40,422 nucleotides of DNA from a virus (Duplodnaviria; Heunggongvirae; Uroviricota; Caudoviricetes): the IMG/VR virus record IMGVR_UViG_2563366920_000004, one strand, 5' to 3'. Of this stretch, positions 1 to 40,422 are shown in pieces (within the stretch, counting starts at the first letter, position 1; each line of letters opens with the position of its first letter). A program made the translations under genes and the position numbers. The notes below the pieces were generated by a model. That model did not search any database, had not been told where the DNA came from, and saw only the letters and a list, made by a program, of their open reading frames with translations.

Positions 1-174
1 ATGCGAAAACGACACCGATTTAACAGTCGCATGACCCGTATCGTACTGCTCATCAGCTTTATCTTCTTCTTTGGCCGTTTTATCTACTCGTCCGTCGGTG
101 CCTGGCAGCACCATCAGAGCAAAAAAGAAGCTCAGCAATCCACACTCTCCGTCGAATCACCGGTACAACGTTAG
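1..174 (+). CDS. small membrane protein (57 aa), below the ORF-track size cutoff
   Basis: ATG at window position 1, open frame to TAG at 172-174; basic N-terminus followed by one hydrophobic helix (IVLLISFIFFFGRFIY). No RBS visible because the upstream region is outside the window. Confidence 0.3.
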   Translation: MRKRHRFNSRMTRIVLLISFIFFFGRFIYSSVGAWQHHQSKKEAQQSTLSVESPVQR

Positions 175-484
175 CGGTTACCTTCTCCACTCTCACAGAA
201 CATAACGGCACCTCGCTGTCGGATGCTTTTGCTCTTTGAAATTATCAAAGCGGCAGATATTCTTTCATCTTAAATTTTACGTCTTTGTTCTGACTGAAAT
301 TCATCCTGTTCGGCTGCGAAATAAATACATCATTAATACATATGTTGTGATGATGTATTTTTATAAATTATTTCCCACATGAATTTTAATAAATTTAATC
401 TATTCCTTTATACGCAATACATTTACTTTCCTCTTTTGATGATCTTAAATGTCTTATTTTTCGTAATGTGTATAACAAGGAATA

Positions 485-1003
485 GTGATGAAATTTAAAA
501 AATGTCTTCTGCCCGTGGCAATGTTAGCGTCATTCACTCTGGCAGGATGCCAGTCAAATGCTGATGATCATGCCGCCGATGTTTATCAAACCGATCAACT
601 GAATACCAAACAAGAAACTAAAACCGTTAATATTATTTCCATTCTTCCCGCAAAAGTTGCCGTAGACAACGCCCAAAATAAACGGAACGCACAAGCCTTC
701 GGCGCGCTTATTGGCGCTGTCGCTGGCGGTGTTATCGGCCACAACGTCGGGTCTGGCAGCAATTCCGGAACGACGGCAGGTGCAGTTGGCGGCGGAGCTG
801 TAGGCGCGGCAGCGGGTTCTATGGTGAATGATAAAACCTTAGTGGAAGGTGTTTCTTTAACATATAAGGAAGGCACCAAAGTGTATACCTCCACCCAGGT
901 GGGTAAAGAGTGCCAGTTTACGACAGGTTTAGCCGTTGTTATTACCACGACGTATAACGAAACGCGTATTCAGCCAAATACCAAATGTCCTGAAAAGAGC
1001 TAA
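485..1003 (+). CDS. lipoprotein with glycine-zipper domain (YcfJ/SlyB-like outer-membrane lipoprotein family)
   Basis: Signal peptide ending in lipobox LAGC; Gly/Ala-rich stretch GALIGAVAGGVIGHNVG...GAVGGGAVGAAAG typical of glycine-zipper lipoproteins; AAGGAA RBS before ATG; AT-rich upstream region. Confidence 0.6.
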   Translation: MMKFKKCLLPVAMLASFTLAGCQSNADDHAADVYQTDQLNTKQETKTVNIISILPAKVAVDNAQNKRNAQAFGALIGAVAGGVIGHNVGSGSNSGTTAGAVGGGAVGAAAGSMVNDKTLVEGVSLTYKEGTKVYTSTQVGKECQFTTGLAVVITTTYNETRIQPNTKCPEKS

Positions 1004-1018
1004 TAATCAGGAGGAGTC

Positions 1019-1558
1019 ATGAAGAAAGTTTTTCTTTGCGCCATCTTAGCCTCCTTAAGCTATCCGGCTATCGCCTCATCATTGCAGGATCAACTCTCGG
1101 CTGTCGCAGAAGCGGAACAGCAAGGTAAAAATGAAGAGCAAAGGCAGCATGACGAATGGGTCGCGGAGCGCAACAGGGAAATCCAGCAAGAGAAGCAACG
1201 TCGCGCAAACGCCCAGGCCGCGGCTAATAAAAGAGCGGCAACGGCAGCAGCGAATAAGAAAGCTCGTCAGGATAAACTGGACGCCGAAGCCACTGCGGAC
1301 AAAAAACGCGATCAAAGTTATGAAGATGAGCTACGTAGCTTAGAGATTCAGAAACAAAAACTGGCGCTGGCGAAAGAAGAAGCCCGCGTTAAGCGCGAAA
1401 ACGAATTTATCGATCAGGAACTGAAGCACAAAGCTGCGCAAACCGATGTGGTGCAATCTGAAGCTGACGCAAACAGAAATATGACTGAAGGCGGTCGCGA
1501 TCTGATGAAAAGCGTGGGTAAAGCAGAAGAGAATAAATCAGATAGCTGGTTTAACTAA
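1019..1558 (+). CDS. secreted, highly charged coiled-coil protein of unknown function
   Basis: Sec-type signal peptide (MKKVFLCAILASLSYPAIASS); remainder rich in K/E/Q/A/R; AGGAGG RBS 6 nt upstream; starts 16 bp after the preceding gene (operon-like). Confidence 0.5.
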   Translation: MKKVFLCAILASLSYPAIASSLQDQLSAVAEAEQQGKNEEQRQHDEWVAERNREIQQEKQRRANAQAAANKRAATAAANKKARQDKLDAEATADKKRDQSYEDELRSLEIQKQKLALAKEEARVKRENEFIDQELKHKAAQTDVVQSEADANRNMTEGGRDLMKSVGKAEENKSDSWFN

Positions 1559-1596
1559 ACGATGTTAGTAACTTCAAACCTATAATTCTTTAGGAT

Positions 1597-1630
1597 AAAA
1601 AACCCTCTGTAGTAACAGAGGGTTTTGTTC
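1597..1630. terminator. bidirectional intrinsic terminator between convergent genes
   Basis: AACCCTCTGT-AGTA-ACAGAGGGTT hairpin flanked by an A-run upstream and T-run downstream; lies between the 1019..1558 (+) and 1776..2258 (-) gene ends. Confidence 0.6.
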
Positions 1631-1775
1631 ATTCATAGTGCAGGGTCAAATCATTCCCACTCAATTATTTACGACAATCATAACCAATTGAGTGATAACA
1701 TTTTTCCAAAGTTCAACTTTTCCCGTACCGTTTTATATACCGTCACCGGAAATCAGTGCCATGAAAAATACCATG

Positions 1776-2258
1776 CTATCTGGTCAGGGTGTCGTACTGT
1801 TTTTCGCAGACTCTTCCGGCTTCGGCTGCCCGGTCAGCATACTCTGCCAGTTGTCTGTTTCTCTCGAGAGATTTGCTGAGCACGTCGGCAAGCAAAACTC
1901 CGGTGTCTGCGGCTGACGACCCAGCGCCGACAATGGCGTTATACTGCCTGAGCTGCTCACGGATGGCAACGAGCTGTTGCTGCAACCTACCAGCGCGAGC
2001 GGCAGCATCAAGAGCATCGCTGCGCGCCTGATCGATCCTCTGCTGCGCTTCACGTTCATTGGTCGCTTTCTCCTGTTCGTAGTACTGACGAACTTTTTCT
2101 TCTTCGGCTTTGCGGTCTTCTTCCGCCTGCGCATACCCGGCATCGTACTGGCGACTGCCGTGTGCATTCCAGGCTACAACTCCTGATATGACCAGAACAG
2201 CAAGCATCGCCATGATAACCAACTGTTTCCAGTATGCTTTTGCGAATGCCCAGATCAT
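1776..2258 (-). CDS. Rz-like i-spanin (inner-membrane spanin subunit)
   Basis: N-terminal transmembrane helix then coiled-coil Q/E/R/A-rich periplasmic domain; start overlaps endolysin stop by 4 nt; last gene of the lysis cassette. Confidence 0.6.
1784..2059 (-). CDS. Rz1-like o-spanin lipoprotein embedded out of frame within Rz
   Basis: Alternate frame inside the Rz gene encodes a signal peptide with lipobox ([16 protein letters not shown]) followed by a Pro-rich short protein; start taken at internal Met-37 of the track ORF 1784..2167 (Met-51 at 2017 is an alternative). Confidence 0.5.
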   Translation of the reverse strand: MNVKRSRGSIRRAAMLLMLPLALVGCSNSSLPSVSSSGSITPLSALGRQPQTPEFCLPTCSANLSRETDNWQSMLTGQPKPEESAKNSTTP

Positions 2259-2884
2259 ACCGCCAGCACCTTACTGGCAGTGATGTATCGCGCGCGCCGG
2301 TCATCAATGCCGTTCCGGCCACCATTGATAAGCAGAGTTACACGTGCAATATCTCCGGTATACTTCATGCAGCCTTTGCTGGCGAAGAACCACGCCGCGC
2401 TACGAGCCGCATATTCGTCCTGCGCCAGCAGTTCAGGATTCTCCAGCAGGTCAACCTTCAGACCGTTTCCGCAATCACGATAGTTATTCAAACCGGTAAT
2501 CTGGATAAGTCCGCGCCCTCGGTAATTCCAGCCATCACCAGGGGCATTGTTCCCCATGCGTTTGCTGTACACCAGATTGGCAATCGCTCTCTGGCGCTCA
2601 GGTGGCAATGGTGGTTCGCCTGCGCGTCGCCCCAATGCGTTGGCCTGTCCCTGAGTGAGACGCCCAGCCCGAACAAAGTTAGCCAGTCCGCTGACGCTGT
2701 AGTTGAAATTCTCCTGCAACCGGGTGAAGCCTCCAGACTCATGCCCGACCTGAGCAATAAACATAGCCTGATCTTCTGGTTTGCTGATACCAAACTCTTT
2801 CATCGCAGAAGTTATATGCGAGAACCAGCGTGCGGCCAGTGCCTCGCTGATACCAGCAGCTCGCTGGAATTGTTTAATCTCCAT
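2255..2884 (-). CDS. endolysin, glycoside hydrolase family 19 (chitinase-like lysozyme)
   Basis: Start set at internal Met (MEIKQFQ...) of track ORF 2255..3049; motifs [10 protein letters not shown] and [12 protein letters not shown] typical of GH19 phage endolysins; overlaps the upstream holin-like gene. Confidence 0.85.
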
Positions 2885-3182
2885 GTTTAGACCTCGATAC
2901 TTTGAAAATTTGAACGACGTTACCGCGCGTTTTAATAACCGCAGCAAGCATGACAGCGTTGATAATGACCTCGGATAAATCCACAGCCATTGGCGTACGT
3001 AACCAGATTGCATAGGCGACTCGAACAGGAATACTGGCCGCAGCAACAATCAGGAAATAAGCAAGCCATCCTCCCCACCTTCGGTGTTGAGAGCCGTTAC
3101 GCCGGAATGTGACAACGCGAATTGCTATGCCAGTGCAAATAACTGCATTGGTGATAAGCAAAAAAAACTCATGCGTTACCAT
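2874..3182 (-). CDS. holin/antiholin-like small membrane protein
   Basis: 102 aa with 2-3 hydrophobic helices and charged C-terminus; located between a holin-like gene and the endolysin, overlapping both. Confidence 0.5.
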
Positions 3183-3573
3183 CGTCTTTTCTCCCCGGAA
3201 TTAACTCGCGTGGATTATCGGAACGGTGATAGAGCCATATACCAATACGCACAGCGACAATTGCTGACACGAATGCGCCTGCAGAGAAAACAATCCCTTT
3301 TTCAAAAGAGTCCTGCGTGATGGTAGGGATCAGGCTAGCTATGCCGATAAGAATTGATGCTGCTGGTTTGTAAAAGAGAAGGCCGCAAAGAAAGCTGAGC
3401 ATCGACAGGAGCACCCGGCGACGGATGGGGTACTCTACTGCAGAGGTAACAAAAATCACCGCCCCAGCCAAAGCCCCTAAAGCAACCTCCGGAGGGACAC
3501 CTGCAATAACCGCAGCAAGAGAACCAAAACTAAGCAACTGATTTAATTGCTCACTTGTTACTTGAGCAGACAT
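3169..3573 (-). CDS. holin-like membrane protein
   Basis: 134 aa, several hydrophobic helices, charged C-terminal tail; AGGAG RBS 6 nt upstream; first gene of lysis cassette. Confidence 0.55.
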   Translation of the reverse strand: MSAQVTSEQLNQLLSFGSLAAVIAGVPPEVALGALAGAVIFVTSAVEYPIRRRVLLSMLSFLCGLLFYKPAASILIGIASLIPTITQDSFEKGIVFSAGAFVSAIVAVRIGIWLYHRSDNPRELIPGRKDDGNA

Positions 3574-3879
3574 ACTTTCTCCTGTTTACTATCTATAAGC
3601 CAGTCAATTATTGATGACTAAACCCGCATAGTAAACCATATATGAATCATTATTGTTCCATATCATATATCTCAATAAAAGTACTAATGATTTTACAGAA
3701 CGAGCCAGCAGAGTGGGGGCAGTTGTACAGGAACCATAGACTTAATTTTGTATTTAATAATGCTATGGTGTAATAAACCTGAACATGTATTTAAAATACG
3801 TACTGATTCATGATAGAATTCAAAGATAACTTTTCACCAACTCCGTTTTTGATACCCGCAAAATATTGCGGGCTTTTTT

Positions 3880-6800
3880 TTAACGTTCTTCCAGAGACTG
3901 AATCCGCTCTTTTATCTTATCCATTTCTCTGCGCTGCCATGCTGCCTCGATATAGAATAAGAGATCAGGTCTGACCCCCCATCTAGATCCTGCTGGCGTT
4001 ATTTCAACGCGCTCAATGATGTCTTCCATTACCATCACTGGATTATCATCCTCATCAACAATGATGCTCCCGTCATTATCAGTCAGCGGAATTTCCCTTT
4101 GGCCAGTAATGACGTCATCATATACTGCGGGATAATCGTCATAGCAAAGAAAGGCATAGCGGCATGTTGTGCTTTCTTCTTCCATGAGTCCGTGAGAAAT
4201 AAGAACATCACGAAGTTGCTGCGCGATTACACCATGATGTATCCTCGCCCCTTCTTCTCCCTTTATAGCGACAGCGTTCAGCCATTTATAAGCGATATAC
4301 CTGACGTCACCCCAGGCATCCAGCAATGCTTCGTCAGGAGAGACCGGCTCTGTCTTTAATGTTCCGTCACTGGTAACCACAGGATTGGAGCCAAGATAAA
4401 CTGTCGAGAACCTGTTTCCCGGACCACCAAGAGCATTTACATTATCAAGATAAGGTTTAACATCTCCGTTCTCAAAAAGATGTTCGAGTGCGTTATATAC
4501 CGCGCGACGTGGAGTACTGCTTCTGGAACCATGCAACGTTATCATTGCACCATCTGCTGAAGACGTTGTTTCACCGCCGCTAACGATTAATCTCTGAGCG
4601 GTAACATCATCAGACGGTACTTTCTTCGCAATAATGGCGTAATTACCCTCAAGTTTGACTTCCGCGCGAACTTGTCCTGATGTACCTGCATGGACAGTCA
4701 GTGACTGGACGGCAACATCATCTGTGAAATCAACGGGTACAGGAACCGTCCTCACGCCTGACGTCGACATAAAAGTAGGAAGCGTTCTGTTAGGAGTGGC
4801 TCCGTAGACAAAATCCCTTGAAACAAATTCTTCCTGTTTAATTTTCACCCTGAAACAATACAAATCAGCCGGGTGACCATCGTGAACATAAGGATATTTT
4901 CTGTTGTTATCCCCTATGCTCCATGGGTTTAGAAAGTCTTCCCCACCGAAAATGTAGTACAGCCAGTTGTCTTTGATACAAACTGAACCAACACCAACCG
5001 CAGAGTTAACTATTCCGCCCTGATAAATCTGATCAGTAACATTAACCCACTCTACATTATCCAGACTCCACTCATTGACGTTAACTCTGGTCATAAATGT
5101 TCTTGGATAGTTTCCTGCATAACGGTTATCAGGTTCTCCTCCTTCCCACTCACCAAATGCGCGCTCACTGCCAAAAATAATCAGCTCATCGCCAACTTTG
5201 GCAAAAGGAAGGTTTGAGTGATGAACATTATTTGGGAAGCGAAGAGAATTCCATGATGTACCTAAATCAGAGCTTCTGTGCAATGAACTACCGGGTTGAG
5301 TACTTAATGTCCCCCTGGTCGTCAGATACAGAATGCCATCATAATATTTTACACATGGCTCAGATGCATTCGCCTCATATTCTGCAGGTATGCGTCTGCG
5401 AACAAAGCTACCAGGAGAACCGAAAGCATCAGAGAAATAGAGTATCCCAAGCTCGCGTGGACCAATATCACCATTATGGTAGCCAACAGCAAAACTGTTA
5501 TCGCTAATCGTCGCAAAACTGTGAATCTCAGTAACAGGAGTGCTTCCGTCAACAAAAGAAGGAATAGTTCCAAGACTGGTTTTTCTCCATGGTGACGAGT
5601 GAAATGATGTACCAAAACTCCAGTATCTACCCTCGTTATTCTGATCCACATCCTGGGTATTTTGCGTCGTAACTGTAAAAGTATTTTTATCAATAACAGT
5701 AGTCACCGTCATATTCCCGGTAACACCTGTAACACCAGAGTTTGAGAAGTTGACAAAATCACCAGCAAATAATCCGTGATCAGTAATGCGAATATAAGCG
5801 ACTTGCTGATTTGCTGCTTTCGTTATACCACCATAAACGCGAAGGCTGCGACTCATTGGGCGATCCCACAACTCTGCAACCTGCAGTTTATTTCCGCTCA
5901 CGGTCCGCGTCTCAATTACAGCAAAAAGGCGATTTCTGACAACCCCCATACTCATGCAGTGATAGTTAACTGTGGGATAGTTTTCATGTAAATCTGTAAG
6001 CCATTCCGGCGTTGTCCAGGTCTTCCCGTCATCTCCTGAGCGAACCCATGCAACATGGAGGTTATTTACACCATGGCGGTCTCCAGCCATAAAAGGCGCA
6101 TAGATGACATTGTCATATACAAACGTTTTATCCTGCGTCCAGGCGTTGTACCACGGTGTATCTGTAATTTTAAATAACTCTCCCTGGATAAAATCTTCAG
6201 AAGCATAAAAAAGAGGCTGACCCGGTATTCTCTCAAATAAAAAACGAGCATTTTTAAATCGGCTGACATCCGGAAGAGTTGATACTTTAAAAGTAAGCCC
6301 TAATCCGTCAATTTTATAACCTGGAGATGAGGCTTCAAGGCACGCGCTTATTGCAGTGGAATCGTCATTTATACCATCACCAACAGCTCCAAAATCTTTG
6401 GGGCTAATAGCATCACGCATTTTATCCTGGAACGTTCGGTACACAGCCCCAGAACCATACTGAATAAACCAACCAAAACCACCAACAACCCCGGCGATTG
6501 CAGCATCGACATAATTACGCATTGAGCGATTATTTACAGCGTCCTGTTCAAGTGATGGATCTGCAAGGTTAGAAATTTTGTTTTGCTTTGCATCGTAATA
6601 TTTTGCAAGCAAAGATGGTTTCATCAATGCACGTCTGAACCACCCAAAACATTGCTGGATCAGCATCGTCAGGTAGTCAAAAGCATCTTCATGCACTTCG
6701 GGGAAAAATTTTCCCTGATTGCGAAGGTCTGTCTCCTGCACTACATCAAGCACACGATCTATCGTAATTCGCCATCCAGTAGCAAGCGGCGACGGAAGAA

Positions 6801-6999
6801 CCACAGAACCGCCACTATAAGTTCCCGCCCCAGTTACCGTATAACCGGTATCCAGTACTAGTTCTGTTACGTTACCGTTAAGGTCAGACACCTGAACAAC
6901 CAGGTCGGATTTTTTGAAAATACGGAAGGTATACGGAAATGATGTCGTAACGCCGTTACCAGTGTATTCGTTGTGGTCAACTTCGGTTGAGACCGTCAT
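3880..6999 (-). CDS. tailspike / tail fiber with T7 gp17-like N-terminal adaptor domain, sialidase-like Asp-box motifs and C-terminal intramolecular chaperone (S74-like) domain; putative endosialidase
   Basis: N-terminal ~120 aa follow the T7 tail-fiber N-domain pattern; two Asp-box-like motifs (RSGDDGKTW, SSDLGTSW); C-terminal ~150 aa resemble self-cleaving chaperone domains (TSDGTLK ... IHHGVIAQQL). Confidence 0.75.
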   Translation of the reverse strand: MTVSTEVDHNEYTGNGVTTSFPYTFRIFKKSDLVVQVSDLNGNVTELVLDTGYTVTGAGTYSGGSVVLPSPLATGWRITIDRVLDVVQETDLRNQGKFFPEVHEDAFDYLTMLIQQCFGWFRRALMKPSLLAKYYDAKQNKISNLADPSLEQDAVNNRSMRNYVDAAIAGVVGGFGWFIQYGSGAVYRTFQDKMRDAISPKDFGAVGDGINDDSTAISACLEASSPGYKIDGLGLTFKVSTLPDVSRFKNARFLFERIPGQPLFYASEDFIQGELFKITDTPWYNAWTQDKTFVYDNVIYAPFMAGDRHGVNNLHVAWVRSGDDGKTWTTPEWLTDLHENYPTVNYHCMSMGVVRNRLFAVIETRTVSGNKLQVAELWDRPMSRSLRVYGGITKAANQQVAYIRITDHGLFAGDFVNFSNSGVTGVTGNMTVTTVIDKNTFTVTTQNTQDVDQNNEGRYWSFGTSFHSSPWRKTSLGTIPSFVDGSTPVTEIHSFATISDNSFAVGYHNGDIGPRELGILYFSDAFGSPGSFVRRRIPAEYEANASEPCVKYYDGILYLTTRGTLSTQPGSSLHRSSDLGTSWNSLRFPNNVHHSNLPFAKVGDELIIFGSERAFGEWEGGEPDNRYAGNYPRTFMTRVNVNEWSLDNVEWVNVTDQIYQGGIVNSAVGVGSVCIKDNWLYYIFGGEDFLNPWSIGDNNRKYPYVHDGHPADLYCFRVKIKQEEFVSRDFVYGATPNRTLPTFMSTSGVRTVPVPVDFTDDVAVQSLTVHAGTSGQVRAEVKLEGNYAIIAKKVPSDDVTAQRLIVSGGETTSSADGAMITLHGSRSSTPRRAVYNALEHLFENGDVKPYLDNVNALGGPGNRFSTVYLGSNPVVTSDGTLKTEPVSPDEALLDAWGDVRYIAYKWLNAVAIKGEEGARIHHGVIAQQLRDVLISHGLMEEESTTCRYAFLCYDDYPAVYDDVITGQREIPLTDNDGSIIVDEDDNPVMVMEDIIERVEITPAGSRWGVRPDLLFYIEAAWQRREMDKIKERIQSLEER

Positions 7000-7102
7000 G
7001 TTAAATCTCCAGATAGTCGCAGCACCCGTTGCGCCGCATATCTGGTTATTCTATTACCTGAAAAACCACATATGGATAGAAAGACTGTGAATACGAATAG
7101 AT

Positions 7103-7119
7103 ATTACCTTTCGGGTAAT
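7103..7119. promoter_or_regulatory. operator-like palindrome ATTACC-TTTCG-GGTAAT
   Basis: Perfect TTACC-N5-GGTAA inverted repeat in the divergent region between the tailspike start and the SOS-box gene. Confidence 0.6.
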
Positions 7120-7155
7120 TTGCAAAACGTGCTGGATAGCAAACAAATTATTTGA

Positions 7156-7175
7156 TACTGTATAAATATACAGTT
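7156..7175. promoter_or_regulatory. LexA (SOS) box TACTGTATAAATATACAGTT
   Basis: CTGT-N8-ACAG core with an AT-rich spacer, close to the E. coli LexA consensus; about 20 bp upstream of the ATG at 7195. Confidence 0.7.
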
Positions 7176-7194
7176 ATTGCATGGAGAAGATAAG

Positions 7195-7452
7195 ATGCAG
7201 CAGTATCACTATCCACTGGAAGACGGATTTACCGAAAGGATTCACACGCCGGGAGGCGTCAGATCACTGGTGGAGGGATCGCACTTGATGAAATTACTCC
7301 GGGATCTCGATAAGGATGGATTTAATGTCGATGGCCCACTTGCCGAACTGACTGCACTGATTAACTACGTCACCAGCTCACAGATGTCTATGCAGGATCT
7401 GCAAACACATCTCGACTATTGTGCCGAACAATTACGAAAACAAACCACATAA
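7195..7452 (+). CDS. small antirepressor-like protein (paralog of the Bro-N antirepressor C-terminal domain)
   Basis: ATG at 7195 with GGAG RBS 8 nt upstream (track ORF begins at a TTG at 7177); C-terminus LMKLLRDLDKDGFNVDGPLAELTALINYVTSSQMSMQDLQTHLDY aligns with the C-terminus of 8598..9290. Confidence 0.65.
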   Translation: MQQYHYPLEDGFTERIHTPGGVRSLVEGSHLMKLLRDLDKDGFNVDGPLAELTALINYVTSSQMSMQDLQTHLDYCAEQLRKQTT

Positions 7453-7490
7453 AGAAAAGGCCGCTCTAGCGGCCTATCGTTTCGCTTTGT
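7451..7490. terminator. bidirectional intrinsic terminator
   Basis: GGCCGC-TCTA-GCGGCC hairpin with A-run upstream and T-rich tract downstream, between convergent genes 7195..7452 (+) and 7474..8202 (-). Confidence 0.55.
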
Positions 7491-8202
7491 GCTCGTCCCA
7501 GCACGTTTTGCACCATGCCATTAAGCCGTCCGCATTTTGATTATTAGGGTAAAAGCTAGTTCGTTTTCTGCGGACATTACAAATTGGGCACCACTTCATA
7601 TGGCGTGTATTCTTTGGGCCATCGAGACACCTTGCACACCACTTAGTCAATCCATCTGGATTTTTTGACGATTTCCTGAATTTTTCATATGGAAGGTTTA
7701 TTCTGCATCGCAAGCACTGCTTGCTACCACTTGAAACTCTGTTAGCTGATTCTTCTTTTGGCGGCGATACAGAAGGTATTCTTGCTGGCTCTGATACTGC
7801 CTGAGGTGCTTTTTTAGATGACTGAGACGATATGTCATCACCAGGGAATCTTCCATGATATGCCGGACGCGTTGACACTCCGGGTGGAAGCTCAGCTGTA
7901 AACGGCTTTGGCTGAATCAGTTGCCTCTCTTTTGCTAACTCCTGCTGTTTATAATATGTCTGGATTACCGCGCTATCATAAGCAGGAGGTACGGAAATAT
8001 TAGGCGCATTATCTCCCGTTTTTTGAAACTGAGTGGAGGTGTGTTCTATCACCTGTGTACGATTAATCGTTATCTCCCCATCTTCAGTCTTTATCGTTTT
8101 GTTATGATTAACGACCGTACGATCAGAGATCTTAGTCTTGTTCTGGTTGATAACGTAAATAATCACCGCAACCACACCAACAACTACCCAGAAAACTTCC
8201 AT
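7474..8202 (-). CDS. membrane-anchored protein with C-terminal tandem CxxC zinc-ribbon repeats, unknown function
   Basis: N-terminal transmembrane helix (VFWVVVGVVAVIIYVI), long Pro/Ser-rich linker, C-terminal duplicated motif C-x2-C ... DGL-x2-WC-x2-C; GAGGAAAGG RBS before ATG. Confidence 0.6.
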   Translation of the reverse strand: MEVFWVVVGVVAVIIYVINQNKTKISDRTVVNHNKTIKTEDGEITINRTQVIEHTSTQFQKTGDNAPNISVPPAYDSAVIQTYYKQQELAKERQLIQPKPFTAELPPGVSTRPAYHGRFPGDDISSQSSKKAPQAVSEPARIPSVSPPKEESANRVSSGSKQCLRCRINLPYEKFRKSSKNPDGLTKWCARCLDGPKNTRHMKWCPICNVRRKRTSFYPNNQNADGLMAWCKTCWDEHKAKR

Positions 8203-8222
8203 TGCCTTTCCTCACAATAACA

Positions 8223-8237
8223 TTACCTTAAAGGTAA
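8223..8237. promoter_or_regulatory. operator-like palindrome TTACC-TTAAA-GGTAA
   Basis: Perfect palindrome 21 bp upstream of the 7474..8202 start codon, in the divergent region shared with the Bro-N gene. Confidence 0.6.
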
Positions 8238-8315
8238 TATCTTGCTTTCAGGTGATCAAGCGTTAAACGCAATCAACCAAATACGGTTGATTTTAATATT
8301 TCTTCGCGTTTATCA

Positions 8316-8330
8316 TTACCTTTGCGGTAA
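8316..8330. promoter_or_regulatory. operator-like palindrome TTACC-TTTGC-GGTAA
   Basis: Second perfect copy in the same divergent region. Confidence 0.6.
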
Positions 8331-8424
8331 ATTTACATCGCACTCCTCTTGTGCCATAGTAATCGGGCACTGGCAAAATCCAGTGCCGGGATTGGTCTCC
8401 CGGATTACTACAGAGGCACATATG

Positions 8425-8443
8425 CCGCATAAGCGGTTTTTTT
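8425..8443 (+). terminator. intrinsic terminator-like hairpin plus T7 run inside the Bro-N gene leader
   Basis: CCGC-ATAA-GCGG followed by TTTTTTT; preceded by two further GC hairpins (about 8365-8403); lies about 155 bp upstream of the Bro-N start. Confidence 0.45.
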
Positions 8444-8597
8444 ATGTGTAAAGCGCACCTATTCTATGGTGGGCTGTGTGGGGGCACCGAAAGGTGCGCC
8501 GGGTTCCTTTGTAGCCGGTAAGACCAACTCTGCACAGTTCACCACCATCTGATTGGTCTCAGCGGTGGTGATTAACCTAACTACAAAGGTGATCGCC

Positions 8598-9290
8598 ATG
8601 AATACCAAACCTTCCATCTTTTCCTTTGAGTCATCCTGCCAGATCCGTATGTTCATGATTGACGGAGAACCTTGGTTTGTCACCAAAGATGTGTGCAATG
8701 CTTTGAATATTGATGTTACACAAGCGAGAAAACTTGATAAAAAAGGCTGGAACAAAAAGGGGCTGTATTCAATACAGACCCCTGGTGGAATACAAGAACT
8801 ATCCATCGTTTCAGAATCAGGTCTCTACATCCTTATTCTGCGTTGCAAAGAGGCAATGACTGAGGGAACGAGAGCATTCAGATTTCTTGAATGGGTTACA
8901 GGTGAGGTTCTTCCTCAGATCCGCCGCACCGGAAGTTACATTAAAAACTCGCTCCCGCAGGAAGAACGCATAAAGATGGTTGCCGACCAGGTAGCCAACG
9001 CCACAGCATCAGCAGTGATGCAGGCAATGAAGATAGAGAACAAAACCTACAGTGCCCCGCTGAAGCCCGGCTACCGCAGCCTGATTCATTCTCCGTCTGG
9101 TGTTCTCGGCCTGACGGAGAACTCATTGCTTATGAATCTGCTAAACCAGTTACAGGAAGACGGGCACGACGTATCGGGCGCGGCGGCGGAGCTGACCACC
9201 ATGTTCTGCTACATCGTCGGTGTGAGCAAATGCCTGCGTGATATCCAGACGCACGCGGAGTACATCAACGACAAGGCAGGGTTCTTCTGA
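8598..9290 (+). CDS. Bro-N domain antirepressor
   Basis: Start set at internal Met (MNTKPSIFSFESSCQIRMFMIDGEPWFVTKDVCNALNI...) of track ORF 8553..9290, with AAGGTGA RBS; N-terminal Bro-N pattern; C-terminal domain paralogous to 7195..7452. Confidence 0.75.
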   Translation: MNTKPSIFSFESSCQIRMFMIDGEPWFVTKDVCNALNIDVTQARKLDKKGWNKKGLYSIQTPGGIQELSIVSESGLYILILRCKEAMTEGTRAFRFLEWVTGEVLPQIRRTGSYIKNSLPQEERIKMVADQVANATASAVMQAMKIENKTYSAPLKPGYRSLIHSPSGVLGLTENSLLMNLLNQLQEDGHDVSGAAAELTTMFCYIVGVSKCLRDIQTHAEYINDKAGFF

Positions 9291-9297
9291 CGGCGGC

Positions 9298-9320
9298 GGC
9301 ACAGGGATGTGCCTTTAAAT
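9298..9320 (+). terminator. intrinsic terminator after the Bro-N gene
   Basis: GGCACA-GGGA-TGTGCC hairpin followed by TTTAAATAATT. Confidence 0.45.
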
Positions 9321-9361
9321 AATTCTGTACGATTGCAGACCGGGGGGTGAATAGAGTACTA

Positions 9362-9376
9362 TTACCTTACGGGTGA
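9362..9376. promoter_or_regulatory. operator-like palindrome, one mismatch (TTACC-TTACG-GGTGA)
   Basis: Imperfect copy of the TTACC-N5-GGTAA motif immediately downstream of a possible -10 (TACTAT). Confidence 0.45.
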
Positions 9377-9413
9377 TCCATAGCGATTAGGCACCGATAC
9401 AGGAGGAGCCCAC

Positions 9414-9446
9414 ATGAGAAAATTTGACGAGTACGAAGGCGTTTAA
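9414..9446 (+). other. 10-codon leader ORF (MRKFDEYEGV) with strong RBS
   Basis: AGGAGGAG 5 nt upstream of ATG; ORF ends 19 nt before a GC-rich terminator hairpin that directly precedes the 9506 gene. Confidence 0.35.
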
Positions 9447-9464
9447 CATTCGGATAGTTTAATG

Positions 9465-9487
9465 ACGGGGCCATTAGGCCCCGTTTT
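9465..9487 (+). terminator. leader terminator/attenuator hairpin
   Basis: ACGGGGCC-ATTA-GGCCCCGT (8-bp GC stem) followed by TTTC; ends about 19 nt before the GTG start at 9506. Confidence 0.5.
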
Positions 9488-9505
9488 CATGTCTGGAGAC
9501 AGTTT

Positions 9506-10045
9506 GTGTTAAGTGAAGAAATGCAATTTGCCATGGCTGTGGCTCAAATCGTAAGTGCAGTCGCGGTTTCGCTTGGCTTGTTCATAGCTATCGCTACTAT
9601 TATTTATAATGTAAATACAGCGAGAAAAGTACACACTTCAGTATTCCTTGGTGAAAGCAGGTTTGATGTAGATTATAAGAAAGGCCTATCTACTATGCGC
9701 CGCATTCACGAGTCGAACAAATCATTCCGCTCTTATATGTATCCAAGCAATGGGCAGGCTGATCTTACGGATGAAGAAAAGATAGAGAAGAGAGAAATAA
9801 TTTACTGTCTAGGTTTCTACGAACGCATGGCTGTGAGCGTGAAGCGGAAAACTTATGATGAGACCATGATTAAGGAAGTATTTTACAGCTCCGTTGTAAA
9901 TAACTATCAGATTGCGCTACCTCTTATACAAGCTATTAGAGAAAAAGAAAACATAAACACATATTTTAAAGAATATGAATGGTTGGCCACACGATGGAAG
10001 GATTGTCCATTGAAGGATAAATCCCCGTGGTACAAGTTTTGGTAA
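9506..10045 (+). CDS. single-pass membrane protein of unknown function (candidate superinfection-exclusion/abortive-infection moron)
   Basis: GTG start with GGAG RBS 7 nt upstream; N-terminal transmembrane helix (AVAQIVSAVAVSLGLFIAIATIIY) then ~140-aa soluble domain; visibly AT-rich; strong terminator immediately downstream. Confidence 0.6.
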   Translation: MLSEEMQFAMAVAQIVSAVAVSLGLFIAIATIIYNVNTARKVHTSVFLGESRFDVDYKKGLSTMRRIHESNKSFRSYMYPSNGQADLTDEEKIEKREIIYCLGFYERMAVSVKRKTYDETMIKEVFYSSVVNNYQIALPLIQAIREKENINTYFKEYEWLATRWKDCPLKDKSPWYKFW

Positions 10046-10066
10046 GCCCGCGCTGCGGGCTTTTTT
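10046..10066 (+). terminator. intrinsic terminator
   Basis: GCCCGC-GCT-GCGGGC followed by TTTTTT directly after the stop codon of 9506..10045. Confidence 0.7.
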
Positions 10067-10104
10067 GTGTCTGCGGATTCCCGCCCGGGTGGCGGTGGCA
10101 TTCG

Positions 10105-10130
10105 TTAAAAACAAGGCCGCGAAAGCGGCC
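10105..10130 (-). terminator. intrinsic terminator for the minus-strand late operon
   Basis: GGCCGC-GAAA-GCGGCC hairpin; on the minus strand it is followed by a U-run (plus-strand TTAAAAACAA); just downstream of the 10138..10989 stop. Confidence 0.6.
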
Positions 10131-10137
10131 TGTTTGA

Positions 10138-10989
10138 TCACTGTGCAGTTTTCGCTGATCGATTTTCAGCTCTAAATTCAAGAACCGTTTCAATATTTCT
10201 TTCCTTCAGCATATCAATAACATTTTTATTCATTTGACTATCACTGGTTAATAACTGGTAAACGTTGCTTCTCTCTTTATCAGAATTTTCTTTAACAGCT
10301 GCTTTGCATGCCAAATGCTTATTGAAATTTTCTACATCGCTAGTACAGGAATTTACGGCTGCTGATGAAATATCAGACGCTGAAGAAACACCATCATCCA
10401 AACGTTTTATAGCATTTTCTATACATGAGTTAAGGGAATAAACGACAACTGAGCGATACCCTTCAGACGCACACCATTCTAAATTTCTTGAAGGATCGAG
10501 TGGTTTTACTTCGCTGGATTGAATTAACTTGTCAAAAACTGACTTATATTCAATCTGTTTTTTATCTATAGCCCATACTTCAGTAGCTGATTTATAATTC
10601 CCCGTATGCCTATTAACATCAAATCCATGTTTTATAAGCAAATCTGCCCATGAAAGATTTATTGATTCATTGTTATGAGGCCATTTTCCTGTCAGAACCG
10701 CCCCCATAGACCCCATATATCCGCCATATGATGGTATAGCACCATGGCTCAGTAACTTCTCAGCAACCACAGGGCAATTAATTACATAAGAGGCGTAAAG
10801 CCCATTCCATAAAGCCCCTCTATAGTAATCGCCACGATTAGGTTCTTTTAAGTCGATAGCCTTTGATAATTGTTCACACGTTTTGCATGCATCAAAGTTA
10901 TCCTTATTGCATTGCAATGAACTGGCGGCTGTAGGATTTACAGAGACTATTGAAAGCACTATGCCAAAAAACAAATTTATTTTTTTCAT
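10138..10989 (-). CDS. secreted protein of unknown function at the end of the virion-protein operon
   Basis: Sec-type signal peptide (MKKINLFFGIVLSIVSVNPTAASS); start 1 nt after the stop of the 1129-aa gene; visibly AT-rich compared with flanking structural genes. Confidence 0.55.
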   Translation of the reverse strand: MKKINLFFGIVLSIVSVNPTAASSLQCNKDNFDACKTCEQLSKAIDLKEPNRGDYYRGALWNGLYASYVINCPVVAEKLLSHGAIPSYGGYMGSMGAVLTGKWPHNNESINLSWADLLIKHGFDVNRHTGNYKSATEVWAIDKKQIEYKSVFDKLIQSSEVKPLDPSRNLEWCASEGYRSVVVYSLNSCIENAIKRLDDGVSSASDISSAAVNSCTSDVENFNKHLACKAAVKENSDKERSNVYQLLTSDSQMNKNVIDMLKERNIETVLEFRAENRSAKTAQ

Positions 10990-10990
10990 C

Positions 10991-26761: not shown

Positions 26762-26838
26762 GTGGCATTAGCTCAGTTGGACAGAGCAACCGCCTTCTAA
26801 GCGGTTGGTCGCAGGTTCGAATCCTGCATGCCACGCCA
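26762..26838 (+). tRNA. tRNA-Arg (anticodon UCU), phage-encoded
   Basis: Cloverleaf traced by hand: 7-bp acceptor stem GTGGCAT/ATGCCAC, D-arm GCTC/GAGC, anticodon stem ACCGC/GCGGT with loop CTTCTAA, T-arm GCAGG-TTCGAAT-CCTGC, discriminator G and encoded CCA. Confidence 0.85.
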
Positions 26839-38334: not shown

Positions 38335-38977
38335 GAAATACACGCTAATCTATGCAGATCCACCCTGGGTATACCGGGATAAAGCCGCAGATGGTAATCG
38401 CGGTGCCGGTTTTAAATATCCGGTTATGAGTGTGCTGGATATCTGCCGCCTTCCTGTGTGGGATTTGGCCGATGAAAACTGTCTGTTGGCCATGTGGTGG
38501 GTGCCAACACAACCACTCGAAGCGCTAAAAGTTGTTGAAGCCTGGGGATTCCGTCTGATGACCATGAAGGGCTTCACGTGGATAAAATGTGGTAGTCGAC
38601 AACCAGATAAACTGGTTATGGGTATGGGACACATGACTCGCGCCAATAGTGAAGATTGCCTGTTTGCAGTAAAGGGAAAACTACCTACGCGCATTAATGC
38701 AGGGATCGTTCAGTCATTTACCGCACCGCGGCTTGAGCACTCAAGAAAACCAGATATCGTTCGTGAAAAACTTGTGCAATTGTTAGGCGATGTTTCTCGC
38801 ATTGAACTGTTCGCCCGCCAGACGTCTCATGGTTTCGATGTTTGGGGTAATCAGTGTGAAGACCCGGCAGTGCAACTACATCCTGGATACGCGTTGGATA
38901 TTGCCGGATTAACAAATGCATTCAGCAATGCTCCGCTGTCACCAACAGACAACCAGGGGCGGGAGCGTGCAGCATGA
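38327..38977 (+). CDS. MT-A70-family DNA N6-adenine methyltransferase
   Basis: 216 aa; catalytic DPPW motif (IYADPPWVY) near the N-terminus; no adjacent restriction endonuclease gene (orphan). Confidence 0.75.
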   Translation: MTKKYTLIYADPPWVYRDKAADGNRGAGFKYPVMSVLDICRLPVWDLADENCLLAMWWVPTQPLEALKVVEAWGFRLMTMKGFTWIKCGSRQPDKLVMGMGHMTRANSEDCLFAVKGKLPTRINAGIVQSFTAPRLEHSRKPDIVREKLVQLLGDVSRIELFARQTSHGFDVWGNQCEDPAVQLHPGYALDIAGLTNAFSNAPLSPTDNQGRERAA

Positions 38978-39168
38978 ACAGGGCATCACCAGCAGATTTA
39001 AGGAAATGCCTTGAAACTGCAAACATGCTTGCACACAGCGGGATCAGGTTTGTTCCAATTCCCGCTGTCACTGATGCTGAATTTGCAACACTGTCAGCAA
39101 TATTCACAGATAAAATTGAATCACTGGCAGCAGAAGCCGAGATGGAAGAAAATCAGCAGAATAATTAA
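38974..39168 (+). CDS. small hypothetical protein (DUF1382-like)
   Basis: 64 aa; coupled (ATGA overlap) to the methyltransferase gene; convergent with the integrase. Confidence 0.4.
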   Translation: MNRASPADLRKCLETANMLAHSGIRFVPIPAVTDAEFATLSAIFTDKIESLAAEAEMEENQQNN

Positions 39169-39171
39169 ACG

Positions 39172-40422
39172 TTATTCCCCCGCCATCCACTTCTCAAACT
39201 TCGACGGGGAGAACGGAATCAGATCCGTATGCTCCCCGTCAATCCAGGAATCAATCATATCGGCCCACTGCTGCAACATGTAGGCGCGCTGTCTGGCGTA
39301 TTCCGCTTTGTTATATACGGCGCGCACACCTTTCTGCTCATGTGCCAGAGCCTTTTCAATCCAGTCTGAAGGATAACCAGCCTCATGCAACAATGTACTG
39401 GCTGTACGGCGCATATCGTGTACGGTGAAGCCCTGAATATGCTCACCATCTTCATTTATTATTTTCACCGTTCTGTCGATCAGAGAGTTCAGCGCGGCAT
39501 TAGATAATGGCTTCCGGAAATTGTAACGACCAGGAACCAGATATTCACTTCCACCAGCGCACATCTGCAATCCGACCAATATATCCTGAGCCTGTTTAGG
39601 CAGGTAAATAACGTGCGCCCGGCTTCCCTTCATGCGGTCTGAAGGAATGGTCCATGTCCATTTTTTAAAATCTATTTCATCCCACGTTGCGTTGGTGAAT
39701 TCGCCTTTACGAACCATAGTGATAAGCACCAGCTTTAAAGCCATTTTCATAGTGCCCATAGCACCAATGGCATCCAGCGTACGGAAGAACAGGCCAATTT
39801 CTTCTGGTGTCAGTGTTCGCTCTCGTGGTTTAAATATGGCGATAGACGAAGGTTTAATGTCAGCCGCAGGATTAAACAAACCATGACCACGGTCATTGGC
39901 GTGACGGTATACGCTGCTGATGATCTCCCTTGCCTGTACTGCTGTTGCCCGACCACCGCGTTCGACAATCCGGTCACACAAATCACGAACCATCGATGTG
40001 GTAATTTCAGCCATCATTTTGTTGCCAAGAACCGGAAGTATGTCACGGTCGATCACTGCCTGCTTCATTGCGCGGGTACTTTCAGCCAGGATGACGTGTT
40101 TCATATAACTGTCGGTATGTACCGCAAACGTCTCGGCACCACGAATCTTTTTGATACCGTCACGTTTAGCCGCAGCCGGCGACTGGCCTGCTTTAAGCAG
40201 CTTCTTTGCAGCAATCAGTTCTTCTCGCGCTTCTGCCAGGCTGATACCGTCACGCCCATACTGCCCGATTACCAGTGTTTCGCGGCGACCGTTGATACGG
40301 TAGTCATAGCGAAACGAGACCGTGCCTGACGTAAGCACAGCTACATACAGCCCGTCACGATCGGAGACCTTGTACAGTTTGTCCTGCGGCTTGAGGTTTT
40401 TTAATTTTGTATCGGTAAGCAC
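39172..40422 (-). CDS. int: tyrosine integrase, P4-type (5' end at or beyond the window edge)
   Basis: 416 aa; N-terminal arm-binding pattern (LTDTKLKNLKP ... GLYVAV), C-terminal catalytic motifs (HDMRRT ... RAVYNKAEY); the reading frame is still open at position 40422. Confidence 0.85.
   Translation of the reverse strand: MLTDTKLKNLKPQDKLYKVSDRDGLYVAVLTSGTVSFRYDYRINGRRETLVIGQYGRDGISLAEAREELIAAKKLLKAGQSPAAAKRDGIKKIRGAETFAVHTDSYMKHVILAESTRAMKQAVIDRDILPVLGNKMMAEITTSMVRDLCDRIVERGGRATAVQAREIISSVYRHANDRGHGLFNPAADIKPSSIAIFKPRERTLTPEEIGLFFRTLDAIGAMGTMKMALKLVLITMVRKGEFTNATWDEIDFKKWTWTIPSDRMKGSRAHVIYLPKQAQDILVGLQMCAGGSEYLVPGRYNFRKPLSNAALNSLIDRTVKIINEDGEHIQGFTVHDMRRTASTLLHEAGYPSDWIEKALAHEQKGVRAVYNKAEYARQRAYMLQQWADMIDSWIDGEHTDLIPFSPSKFEKWMAGE

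Follow-up and report, generated by a model that had tools for sequence, protein, structure and literature searches.

The closest described integration system is that of phage vB_EcoP_ZX5 (ZX5), which infects a K1 host (PMC9782041). Its att core, attgagtgggaatgatt, was verified by PCR and Sanger sequencing and is cited as the attP of phiV10 and epsilon15; integrase-dependent excision and integration at the guaA site were shown experimentally (PMC9782041). The closest described gene arrangement is that of Escherichia coli K-12, in which yfgH and yfgI (b2505–b2506) lie between yfgG and guaA. The stress-induced lipoprotein SlyB (PDB 7ojf/7ojg), the genes upf50.5/upf50.0 of phage-plasmid P7 and the bor/lom morons of phage lambda are further points of comparison for this gene pair.

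The window analyzed here is the whole stretch of 40,422 nucleotides. It resembled the ZX5/phiV10/epsilon15 guaA site in the 17-bp core, in the position of the core over the guaA stop codon, and in the P4-type integrase beside attP. It differed from the free-phage attP systems in that the phage copy was integrated and the window carried attL only. The left end resembled the K-12 locus in genes, order, spacing, terminator, and neighbours, whereas guaA was pushed about 39 kb away by the prophage. The results left very little doubt that window 1–1665 is ordinary E. coli core chromosome and that the prophage was inserted at the 3' end of guaA. No evidence contradicting this explanation was found.

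Integration at the guaA 3' end

The features of the two ends of the window were as follows.

1–174, plus strand: 3' part of host gene yfgG (57 codons and stop), encoding a small DUF2633 membrane protein
485–1003, plus strand: host core gene yfgH (172 aa), encoding a SlyB-like outer-membrane lipoprotein with a glycine-zipper 2TM domain
1009–1014, plus strand: ribosome-binding site AGGAGG of yfgI, 5 nt past the yfgH double stop TAATAA
1019–1558, plus strand: host core gene yfgI (179 aa), encoding an exported DUF5384 protein
1599–1626, both strands: predicted intrinsic terminator with perfect 12-nt arms (1599–1610 and 1615–1626)
1649–1665, no strand: 17-bp attL core AATCATTCCCACTCAAT, where the host match ends and the phage match starts
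1666–1775, no strand: phage P' arm of attP, collinear with the attP of ZX5 and phiV10
1726–1731 (TACCGT) and 1737–1747 (ATACCGTCACC): candidate arm-type integrase sites, with putative binding
1776–2258, minus strand: Rz-like spanin (DUF2514, Pfam E 6e-43), the first prophage gene
1784–2059, minus strand: Rz1 lipoprotein embedded in the spanin gene, from the ORF list
2255–2884, minus strand: GH19 endolysin of the lysis cassette
39172–40422, minus strand: P4-type tyrosine integrase (Pfam PF13356, Arm-DNA-binding; PF22022; PF00589)

Window 1–1665 was matched by all complete E. coli genomes in the DNA comparison (5426/5426). In prophage-free E. coli, the match ended at 1665, the features annotated there were yfgG, yfgH, yfgI, and guaA, and guaA directly adjoined yfgI. 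The stretch consisted of the end of yfgG, yfgH, yfgI, the terminator, and the last 14 coding bases of guaA. The window started 18 nt inside the 192-nt yfgG (Pfam DUF2633, E 2.7e-28); in the prophage-free strain L001, yfgG was annotated at 2483–2674 and the match ran from 2501. A nickel/cobalt tolerance phenotype has been described for yfgG (bioRxiv 10.1101/387399). An earlier note on this DNA had left two readings of the yfgH–yfgI pair standing, phage morons and host genes, and had proposed a comparison with prophage-free genomes. That comparison located the empty site, with guaA next to yfgI, which the note had named as the outcome speaking against morons. The host homology was unbroken to 1665 and the genes were present in prophage-free strains, so the host-gene reading was borne out.

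The free ZX5, phiV10, and phiv142-3 genomes matched the window from 1649 on and nowhere before it. Host similarity ended at 1665, and the overlap was therefore 17 bases. The 17-mer AATCATTCCCACTCAAT was observed at the attB of L001, the attR of a lysogen (L002), and the attP of ZX5 and phiV10, and was the sole long string common to attL, attB, and attR. Its exact reverse complement is the core published for ZX5, attgagtgggaatgatt. Read on the minus strand, the core contained the guaA stop codon (1652–1654) and the last four codons, I-E-W-E (1655–1666), the final base of which fell outside the core. The attP of ZX5 and phiV10 consisted of the attR phage arm, the core, and window 1666 onward. 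By this alignment, attL is placed at 1649–1665 with phage DNA from 1666, inside the range of about 1560–1775 predicted earlier for the case of host genes. This integration site at the 3' end of guaA has already been published for phiV10, epsilon15, and ZX5.

The window ended at the integrase start codon, so attR and guaA should lie just beyond it. The far junction was therefore taken from L002, a lysogen of another strain, which was 99.0% identical over window 1–4000, 98.5% over 1–2300, and 100% over 38900–40422. In L002, the integrase gene was followed by 192 nt and then by guaA. The gene was intact: GuaA had the same accession, WP_000138282.1, in lysogen and non-lysogen, because the phage arm at the far junction brings the same four codons and the stop. 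A podovirus of the ZX5/phiV10/epsilon15 type has integrated at the guaA 3' end through its P4-type tyrosine integrase, with recombination within the 17-bp identity of attP and attB, AATCATTCCCACTCAAT. The attP arms were almost identical with their counterparts in ZX5 and phiV10, with small differences in the P' arm. The sequence ATACCGTCA occurred three times in the reconstructed attP, and an inverted repeat (1658–1674/1678–1694) overlapped the att core. The integrase may bind the P'-arm sites, to judge from their sequence.

A tRNA-like att remnant had been reported as not visible, and no tRNA lay near the left end, because this phage group targets the 3' end of the protein gene guaA. A tRNA-type att site was rejected; the only tRNA of the window in the tRNA search was a phage-borne tRNA-Arg at 26762–26838, internal to the prophage.

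The prophage belongs to Uetakevirus, is ZX5-like, and encodes an endosialidase tailspike. ZX5 covered 83% of window 1560–9000 at 97.7% identity; the accessory region 7000–10990 appeared different from ZX5 and L002, judging by ORF sizes alone. The spanin/Rz1 pair agreed with the annotation of Rz and Rz1 in phiV10. The junction was crossed into spanin and endolysin in 527 of the 5426 E. coli genomes, and the integrase was present in 554; such a prophage occupied the guaA site in about 10% of E. coli genomes.

The yfgH–yfgI pair lay on the plus strand and Rz, Rz1, and the endolysin on the minus strand, so the arrangement was convergent, as described before. The bidirectional terminator claimed between them was also found. 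Its fold energy was −19.3 kcal/mol on the plus strand and −17.8 kcal/mol on the minus strand, and a T run followed the hairpin on each strand (TTTTGTT on the plus strand, TTTTTTAT on the minus strand). The same 28 positions, 1599–1626, were identical in prophage-free L001. The element is the host yfgI/guaA intrinsic terminator, predicted to act on both strands; it separates yfgI from the lysis genes as a feature of the host, not of the phage or of a moron. In the empty site it is common to the convergent yfgI and guaA; in the lysogen, the phage lysis operon takes the place of guaA opposite yfgI. A consensus promoter/terminator scan was uninformative: its counts were not above those of shuffles, and it missed this real terminator, a miss that we attribute to stem extension swallowing the T run.

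At the far junction, the phage arm carried its own terminator between guaA and the integrase gene. This Uetakevirus attP-arm terminator had the same stem as the host yfgI/guaA terminator, so an equivalent terminator is present at both junctions and in the free and integrated states. This phage-borne copy of the host terminator may be previously undescribed.

The yfgH–yfgI pair and its phage-plasmid paralogue

YfgH was annotated on all E. coli matches. The glycine-zipper lipoprotein that the earlier note had read from the letters was confirmed: by eye, the signal MMKFKKCLLPVAMLASFTLAG preceded the cysteine of a lipobox LAG/C, three G-x3-G-x3-G zippers were present, and Pfam PF05433 (Glycine zipper 2TM) matched at 33.2 bits with a cut-off of 24.2. 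In the PDB sequence search, YfgH matched the SlyB structure 7ojf over its full length (E 4.4e-10). Like YfgH, SlyB has a lipobox, a central glycine zipper, and a C-terminal beta region. However, the two are separate paralogues, and a DUF5384 gene accompanies yfgH but not slyB. Their suppressors also differ, clsA for yfgH and Mla for slyB, and cross-complementation was absent (bioRxiv 10.64898/2025.12.22.696046). The same preprint gives a SignalP lipoprotein call, outer-membrane fractionation, and an AlphaFold prediction of an oligomeric YfgH ring in the outer membrane (bioRxiv 10.64898/2025.12.22.696046). The reported role of YfgH is outer-membrane stabilisation during envelope stress, a mechanism for which one genetic-interaction screen and one preprint are the basis (PMC3219608; bioRxiv 10.64898/2025.12.22.696046). 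A TraT-like serum-resistance role was rejected: the Pfam TraT match scored 28 bits, below the cut-off of 31, and the PDB match had an E value of 0.004. This weak match is probably due to common fold elements and not to function.

YfgI matched Pfam DUF5384 (PF17358) with an E value of 4e-62 and 209 bits against a gathering cut-off of 25, over the entire profile (1–145/145). The gene had been described as encoding a secreted, charged coiled-coil protein. The N-terminus was signal-like by eye, ending at AIA/SS, and 39% of the mature protein was charged. AlphaFold2, run on the single sequence, gave one unbroken helix over residues 16–178 with a mean pLDDT of 88. YfgI is thus predicted to be exported and to form one long charged alpha-helix, which supports the helical part of that description. 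A solved relative was not matched in the PDB sequence search. A yfgI mutant showed 7% survival on nalidixic acid (PMC3536626).

The yfgH–yfgI gap was 15 nt, and a spacing of 16–21 nt was retained in 13 loci of other species. The two genes are probably co-transcribed, because the gap is so short. Within E. coli and Shigella, K-12 included, the YfgH and YfgI proteins were 97–100% identical throughout. The gene order yfgG–yfgH–yfgI, with guaA next where it was within the fetched stretch, was also found in other Escherichia, Shigella, Pseudocitrobacter, and two further Enterobacteriaceae. The yfgH–yfgI pair alone was found in Citrobacter, Kluyvera, and a Candidatus Pantoea.

A full-length paralogous pair was found in P7, SJ46, RCS47, and P1-like phage-plasmids, with amino-acid identities of 67% (YfgH) and 47.5% (YfgI). 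Order and spacing were as in the chromosome, and the pair was present in most of the approximately 200 matching plasmid records. In P7, the homologues upf50.5/upf50.0 belong to the same two families, stand in the same order, nearly abut, and are flanked by the tail-tube genes on one side and the immI (c4-icd-ant) region on the other. The P7-type copy is genuinely mobile cargo.

An alpha-helix rises 1.5 Å per residue, so a helix of about 160 residues is about 24 nm long, about the width of the periplasm. We tentatively suggest, as a rather doubtful reading, that yfgH–yfgI is a portable two-protein envelope module in which a SlyB-like ring lipoprotein acts together with such an exported helix; on that reading, the P7/P1-like copy would be a genuine conversion cassette. 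YfgH and YfgI may be physical partners.

The phage-plasmid copies also raise the question of whether yfgHI was anciently acquired as a mobile cassette and fixed in Escherichia beside an integration hot spot. Such a history would concern origin only and is compatible with yfgHI being host DNA today. The matching order and spacing of the paralogues would agree with it, as would the 25% GC of the upstream region, the presence of orthologues in S. Typhi and their absence from S. Typhimurium (PMC11619404), and the additional DNA or missing guaA immediately past yfgI in several related loci. On the other hand, all E. coli genomes compared have the pair, its synteny spans several genera, its coding GC is ordinary (45–56% in the composition scan), the repeat search found no flanking repeats or integrase remnants around it, and transfer from chromosome to phage-plasmid is equally possible. 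An ancient mobile origin is therefore considered unlikely.

The AT-rich region upstream of yfgH

Three features were distinguished upstream of yfgH.

175–484, no strand: yfgG–yfgH intergenic region, AT-rich, with a variable distal and a conserved proximal part
323–360, no strand: near-palindrome of 38 nt, 16 of 19 positions complementary, allele-specific and not conserved
422–450, plus strand: candidate yfgHI promoter, TTTACT (422–427), 17-nt spacer, TTAAAT (445–450)

The AT-rich stretch noticed earlier was confirmed, with 25–32% GC over 201–500. In a 13-locus alignment, binned identity within Escherichia/Shigella was 0.25–0.35 at 295–334 and 355–374, and 0.8–1.0 at 415–494. The TTTACTTT and TTAAA columns were invariant or almost so in 12–13 loci of six genera, which suggests that TTTACT/TTAAAT is the yfgHI promoter. 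This candidate was not listed in the consensus scan, which demands A at position 2 of the −10 hexamer.

The inverted repeat described in this stretch was present, with perfect arms of 11 nt (AAATACATCAT, 323–333; ATGATGTATTT, 350–360) and not 10 bp as had been given. It might be taken for a regulatory operator or a transcript hairpin controlling yfgHI. An arm of at least 11 nt occurred in only 9 of 2000 dinucleotide-preserving shuffles of 175–484, and some 100 nt separate the palindrome from the conserved promoter-like block downstream. Among the allele differences, three raise complementarity and one lowers it; a further one, C-G in the window and T-A in the K-12 type, is compensated and speaks for such a role. 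No single event of quasi-palindrome template switching accounts for all of these differences.

However, conservation of the intergenic region is lowest where the palindrome lies, and short palindromes arise readily in AT-rich DNA. Among 5381 matching E. coli records, segment 300–385 was at least 99% identical in 18, 95–99% in 1102, and 80–90% in 3569. The segment was 86% identical to the K-12-type allele, in which 14 of 19 positions were complementary by hand count. The allele of the window was present in about one fifth of E. coli genomes, and the majority allele was degraded to a perfect arm of 7 nt. In the 13-locus alignment, the palindrome was not found in E. ruysiae, E. whittamii, or other genera, the sequence of the sister species being unrelated. 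A conserved operator was rejected on these comparisons across and within species. An Rfam search of 1–2300 at a permissive threshold returned two chance-level eukaryotic lncRNA matches only, so neither the AT-rich region nor the palindrome contains a known RNA element. The S. Typhi orthologues, srgIL, are reported to be under SdiA control, but SdiA did not regulate the fusion carrying E. coli yfgHI (PMC11619404), and SdiA control of E. coli yfgHI was dropped on this ground. A regulatory role of the palindrome is thus judged very improbable.

Moron reading and meaning of the host assignment

The likeness to lambda bor/lom, with a true attL to the left of the window start, has next to no probability: it draws on a small envelope lipoprotein gene downstream of late/lysis genes with its own terminator and AT-rich upstream DNA, on the sub-threshold TraT match, on the RefSeq "phage" record TL-2011b that counts these genes as phage genes, and on the diverged pair truly carried by P7-type phage-plasmids, but the pair is in 5426/5426 genomes, about 90% of which are without the prophage junction, host homology is continuous to 1665 and empty sites continue into guaA, free Uetakevirus genomes match from 1649 only and none has yfgH/yfgI, and the att core was mapped experimentally in ZX5 (PMC9782041). 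The genes end at 1558 and the core starts at 1649, so they are outside the prophage. Unlike the lambda genes, yfgH is situated beyond the att sites, occurs throughout the species, and is missing from the free phage. It thus does not qualify as a moron of this prophage, and the moron reading of the earlier note is refuted. The terminator and the AT-rich upstream region fit a host operon equally well.

The sole near-identical "phage" match to yfgH/yfgI was TL-2011b, an over-extended prophage record. It also includes yfgG and part of pdeF and thus overshoots into host DNA.

Since these are host genes and the guaA site is published, the finding is ordinary and already known, and its value is mainly corrective. 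The left 1.65 kb should be labelled as host DNA, with the prophage limits at 1649/1666. This avoids scoring yfgH/yfgI as phage-borne virulence or serum-resistance cargo. A mislabelling of this kind is already found in RefSeq, where TL-2011b presents the host genes as phage genes.

The forward value lies in the phage-borne copy of the host terminator, the mobile yfgH/yfgI paralogue on P7-type phage-plasmids, and the conserved association of yfgH with yfgI, whose product is uncharacterised. If the module reading is true, the copy on P7/P1-like phage-plasmids would harden the outer membrane of its carrier or exclude other phages.

Left-end genes and the attachment site

All features that the earlier note had described at the left end were found in the sequence and are real. 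The window started 18 nt inside yfgG and ended at the integrase start codon; therefore, attR and guaA lay just outside it.

Features at the left end of the window (coordinates, strand, description)
1-174, +, truncated small ORF, the 3' part of yfgG; DUF2633 (Pfam)
175-484, no strand, intergenic region; GC 25-32% across 201-500
485-1003, +, yfgH, 172-aa ORF; lipobox LAG/C and three G-x3-G-x3-G zippers; Glycine zipper 2TM PF05433 (Pfam)
1009-1014, +, ribosome-binding site AGGAGG within the 15-nt gap
1019-1558, +, yfgI, 179-aa ORF; signal-like N-terminus (…PAIA/SS), 39% charged mature part; DUF5384 (Pfam)
1599-1626, no strand, terminator hairpin; perfect 12-nt arms
1776-2258, -, Rz-like spanin; Rz1 embedded at 1784-2059
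2255-2884, -, GH19 endolysin; holins next

Window 1-2300 was used as the megablast query against 5426 complete E. coli genomes, and all of them (5426/5426) were matched. The match was exactly 1-1665 in most genomes, with yfgG, yfgH, yfgI, and guaA as the underlying features; in 527 genomes, it reached further, into the genes for the DUF2514 spanin and endolysin. The prophage-free locus of E. coli L1PEag1 showed 99.7% identity across 1-1665. Its gene order was pdeF, yfgG, yfgH, and yfgI, followed by convergent guaA and guaB, with 93 nt from the end of yfgI to the guaA stop.

The att core was determined by comparing attL (the window), attB (L1PEag1), and attR (lysogen MS20659, whose integrase end matches the window at 100% identity). 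The window and attB were identical through 1665 and unrelated beyond. The only long string common to attL and attR was the 17-mer AATCATTCCCACTCAAT at 1649-1665, whose minus strand reads as the final four codons of guaA (I-E-W-E) followed by the TGA stop and three further bases. As an independent line, the window match of the free phages vB_EcoP_ZX5, phiV10, phiv142-3, and others started exactly at 1649. The attP of ZX5 and that of phiV10 consisted of the attR phage arm, the 17-mer, and window 1666 onward. The published ZX5 core, attgagtgggaatgatt, is the reverse complement of the window 17-mer; ZX5 attB, attL, and attR were confirmed by PCR and Sanger sequencing, and the identical core was stated as attP of phiV10 and epsilon15 (PMC9782041). 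The GuaA protein accession was identical in MS20659 and L1PEag1, so guaA is left intact by integration. From the host and phage match limits, the shared 17-mer, and the ZX5 core, attL is therefore 1649-1665.

The earlier note had likened the two left-flank genes to the bor/lom morons of lambda. This analogy was wrong: the pair was present in every complete E. coli genome compared, and attL lay to its right. The alternative offered there, host genes with attL at 1560-1775, was right, and attL falls within this range, named beforehand as speaking against the moron idea. Both the yfgH/yfgI genes and the guaA attachment site are already known.

The reconstructed attP contained three copies of ATACCGTCA, one at window 1737-1747, and TACCGT was present at 1726-1731. 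These motifs are plausible candidates for arm-type sites. A 17-nt inverted repeat with 82% complementarity was also observed at 1658-1674 and 1678-1694 (CACTCAATT … AATTGAGTG), pairing an arm inside the att core with one located in the phage P' arm. The repeat may be a core-type site, a site for an accessory protein, or a product of chance.

Junction terminators and the intergenic palindrome

The fold energy of the hairpin at 1599-1626 was -19.3 kcal/mol on the plus strand and -17.8 kcal/mol on the minus strand, with a T run past the stem on both. The hairpin was not listed by a simple terminator scan; in our reading, stem extension consumes the T run. The phage arm adjoining attR carried the terminator AAAAACCCTCTGTAAAAACAGAGGGTT (42975-43001 of the MS20659 locus, just beyond the right end of the window), which the phiV10 annotation also calls a terminator. 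Its 8-bp stem (CCCTCTGT/ACAGAGGG) was identical to that of the host yfgI/guaA terminator. The two elements shared a 14-mer and an 11-mer in register, which is very unlikely by chance for such arm sizes. Judged from their sequences, they are probably homologous through shared ancestry and not convergent. In the lysogen, the phage copy lies between guaA and int, and the host copy faces the phage lysis operon; therefore, both junctions have an equivalent terminator whether the phage is free or integrated.

The inverted repeat reported in the intergenic region was real and slightly longer than first described, with perfect 11-nt arms at 323-333 and 350-360 enclosed in a 38-nt near-palindrome (16/19 positions complementary). 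When the intergenic region was shuffled 2000 times with dinucleotide composition preserved, a perfect 11-nt arm was reached in only 9 shuffles. The block conserved across 13 loci was 415-494. It contained TTTACT, a 17-nt spacer, and TTAAAT at 422-450, taken to be a candidate promoter, followed by a ribosome-binding site. The palindrome sat in the stretch with the least conservation. Segment 300-385 was matched in 5381 E. coli records, with identity of at least 99% in only 18, 95-99% in 1102, and 80-90% in 3569. In the K-12-type allele (AAATATAAAATTAATATATATGTTGTAATGATATATTT), the longest perfect arm was 7 nt, with 14/19 positions complementary by our count, and sister species had unrelated sequence at this position. 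The palindrome is therefore a statistically unusual but lineage-specific allele, and a role as a conserved regulatory site is unlikely.

Within E. coli, 295-375 varied far more than the sequence around it (identity to the K-12 type of 86%, versus about 97% for the whole of 1-1665). The differences were concentrated inside the palindrome, with one compensated pair and three raising complementarity. They may have arisen by quasi-palindrome template switching.

The prophage and its accessory region

ZX5 covered 83% of window 1560-9000 with 97.7% identity. The MS20659 annotation showed an epsilon15-like gene set, including the capsid staple protein gp10, a T7 gp14-like core protein, and large internal proteins. 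The integrase had arm-binding, central, and catalytic domains (Pfam). A prophage with a matching integrase was found in 554 of the 5426 complete E. coli genomes (about 10%).

The tailspike (3880-6999, minus strand) contained the complete set of endosialidase domains, with a chaperone domain at its C-terminus. It was a mosaic, notably over 3909-6301: the catalytic part shared 99.6% DNA identity with the endosialidase of CUS-3, a P22-like K1 prophage, while the N-terminal adaptor and the remaining genome were of the Uetakevirus (epsilon15/phiV10) type. K1 strains were numerous among lysogens at the guaA site (IHE3034, APEC O18, and O1/O2:K1 isolates among them). A phage-borne tRNA-Arg (anticodon TCT; 26762-26838, plus strand) separated the portal/small-protein block from the terminase genes, and was also annotated in MS20659. 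The accessory region proper was 7000-10990, in mixed orientation, with the tailspike gene on one side and the genes for internal virion proteins on the other.

Genes of the accessory region
7474-8202, 242-aa membrane protein with Cys-rich C-terminus
8553-9290, BRO-N anti-repressor
9506-10045, DUF4760 protein
10138-10989, 283-aa signal-peptide protein without Pfam match

Judging by ORF sizes, two other small genes seem to take the place of the last one in the near-identical MS20659 prophage.

The yfgH-yfgI pair and its mobile relatives

YfgH matched the solved SlyB structure 7ojf over its full length (E 4.4e-10) and TraT weakly. Aggravating genetic interactions of yfgH with lptD, together with vancomycin sensitivity, link it to outer-membrane integrity (PMC3219608). 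In a 2025 preprint, YfgH was localised to the outer membrane, its mutant was sensitive to SDS/EDTA, depletion of LpxC, LptD, or BamA strongly induced yfgH, and clsA mutations suppressed the yfgH phenotype; yfgI is nowhere mentioned there (bioRxiv 10.64898/2025.12.22.696046). The sole yfgI phenotype is nalidixic-acid sensitivity (PMC3536626). YfgI had no solved relative in a PDB sequence search, and its single-sequence AlphaFold2 model was one unbroken helix (residues 16-178, mean pLDDT 88).

The yfgH-yfgI order and a gap of 16-21 nt were kept in other Escherichia species, Shigella, Citrobacter, Pseudocitrobacter, and Kluyvera; the gap in Candidatus Pantoea was 12 nt. This conservation across genera supports a predicted operon with a joint function. 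In E. whittamii, about 820 nt (3571-4394 of its locus) separated yfgI from guaA, versus 93 nt in E. coli. No guaA end followed yfgI in Escherichia sp. E1V33, two Citrobacter, and one Kluyvera within the roughly 1.9 kb examined (about 1.0 kb to the contig end in one locus, L013). The extra DNA or missing guaA suggests that this hot spot has received other insertions as well.

The RefSeq "phage" record TL-2011b (NC_019445.1, 1861-5285 of its locus) continues into host DNA for about 3.6 kb beyond the att core, and its listed phage features include yfgI, yfgH, yfgG, and a portion of pdeF. The label "DNA methyltransferase" stood under the YfgH-homologue match in NC_019445, NC_050152 (P7), NC_031129 (SJ46), and NC_042128 (RCS47); in NC_019445, the coordinates place it on the yfgH CDS. 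This looks like a propagated mis-annotation.

In P7 (AF503408.1), upf50.5 and upf50.0 (4008-5072 of the retrieved locus) were diverged full-length homologues of yfgH and yfgI, with 67% and 47.5% amino-acid identity, with tubA on one side and the c4-icd-ant immunity region on the other. SJ46, RCS47, and further P1-like phage-plasmids also carried the diverged pair, as did the majority of the roughly 200 plasmid records matched. Therefore, the yfgH/yfgI family can be mobile cargo, though not in this prophage.
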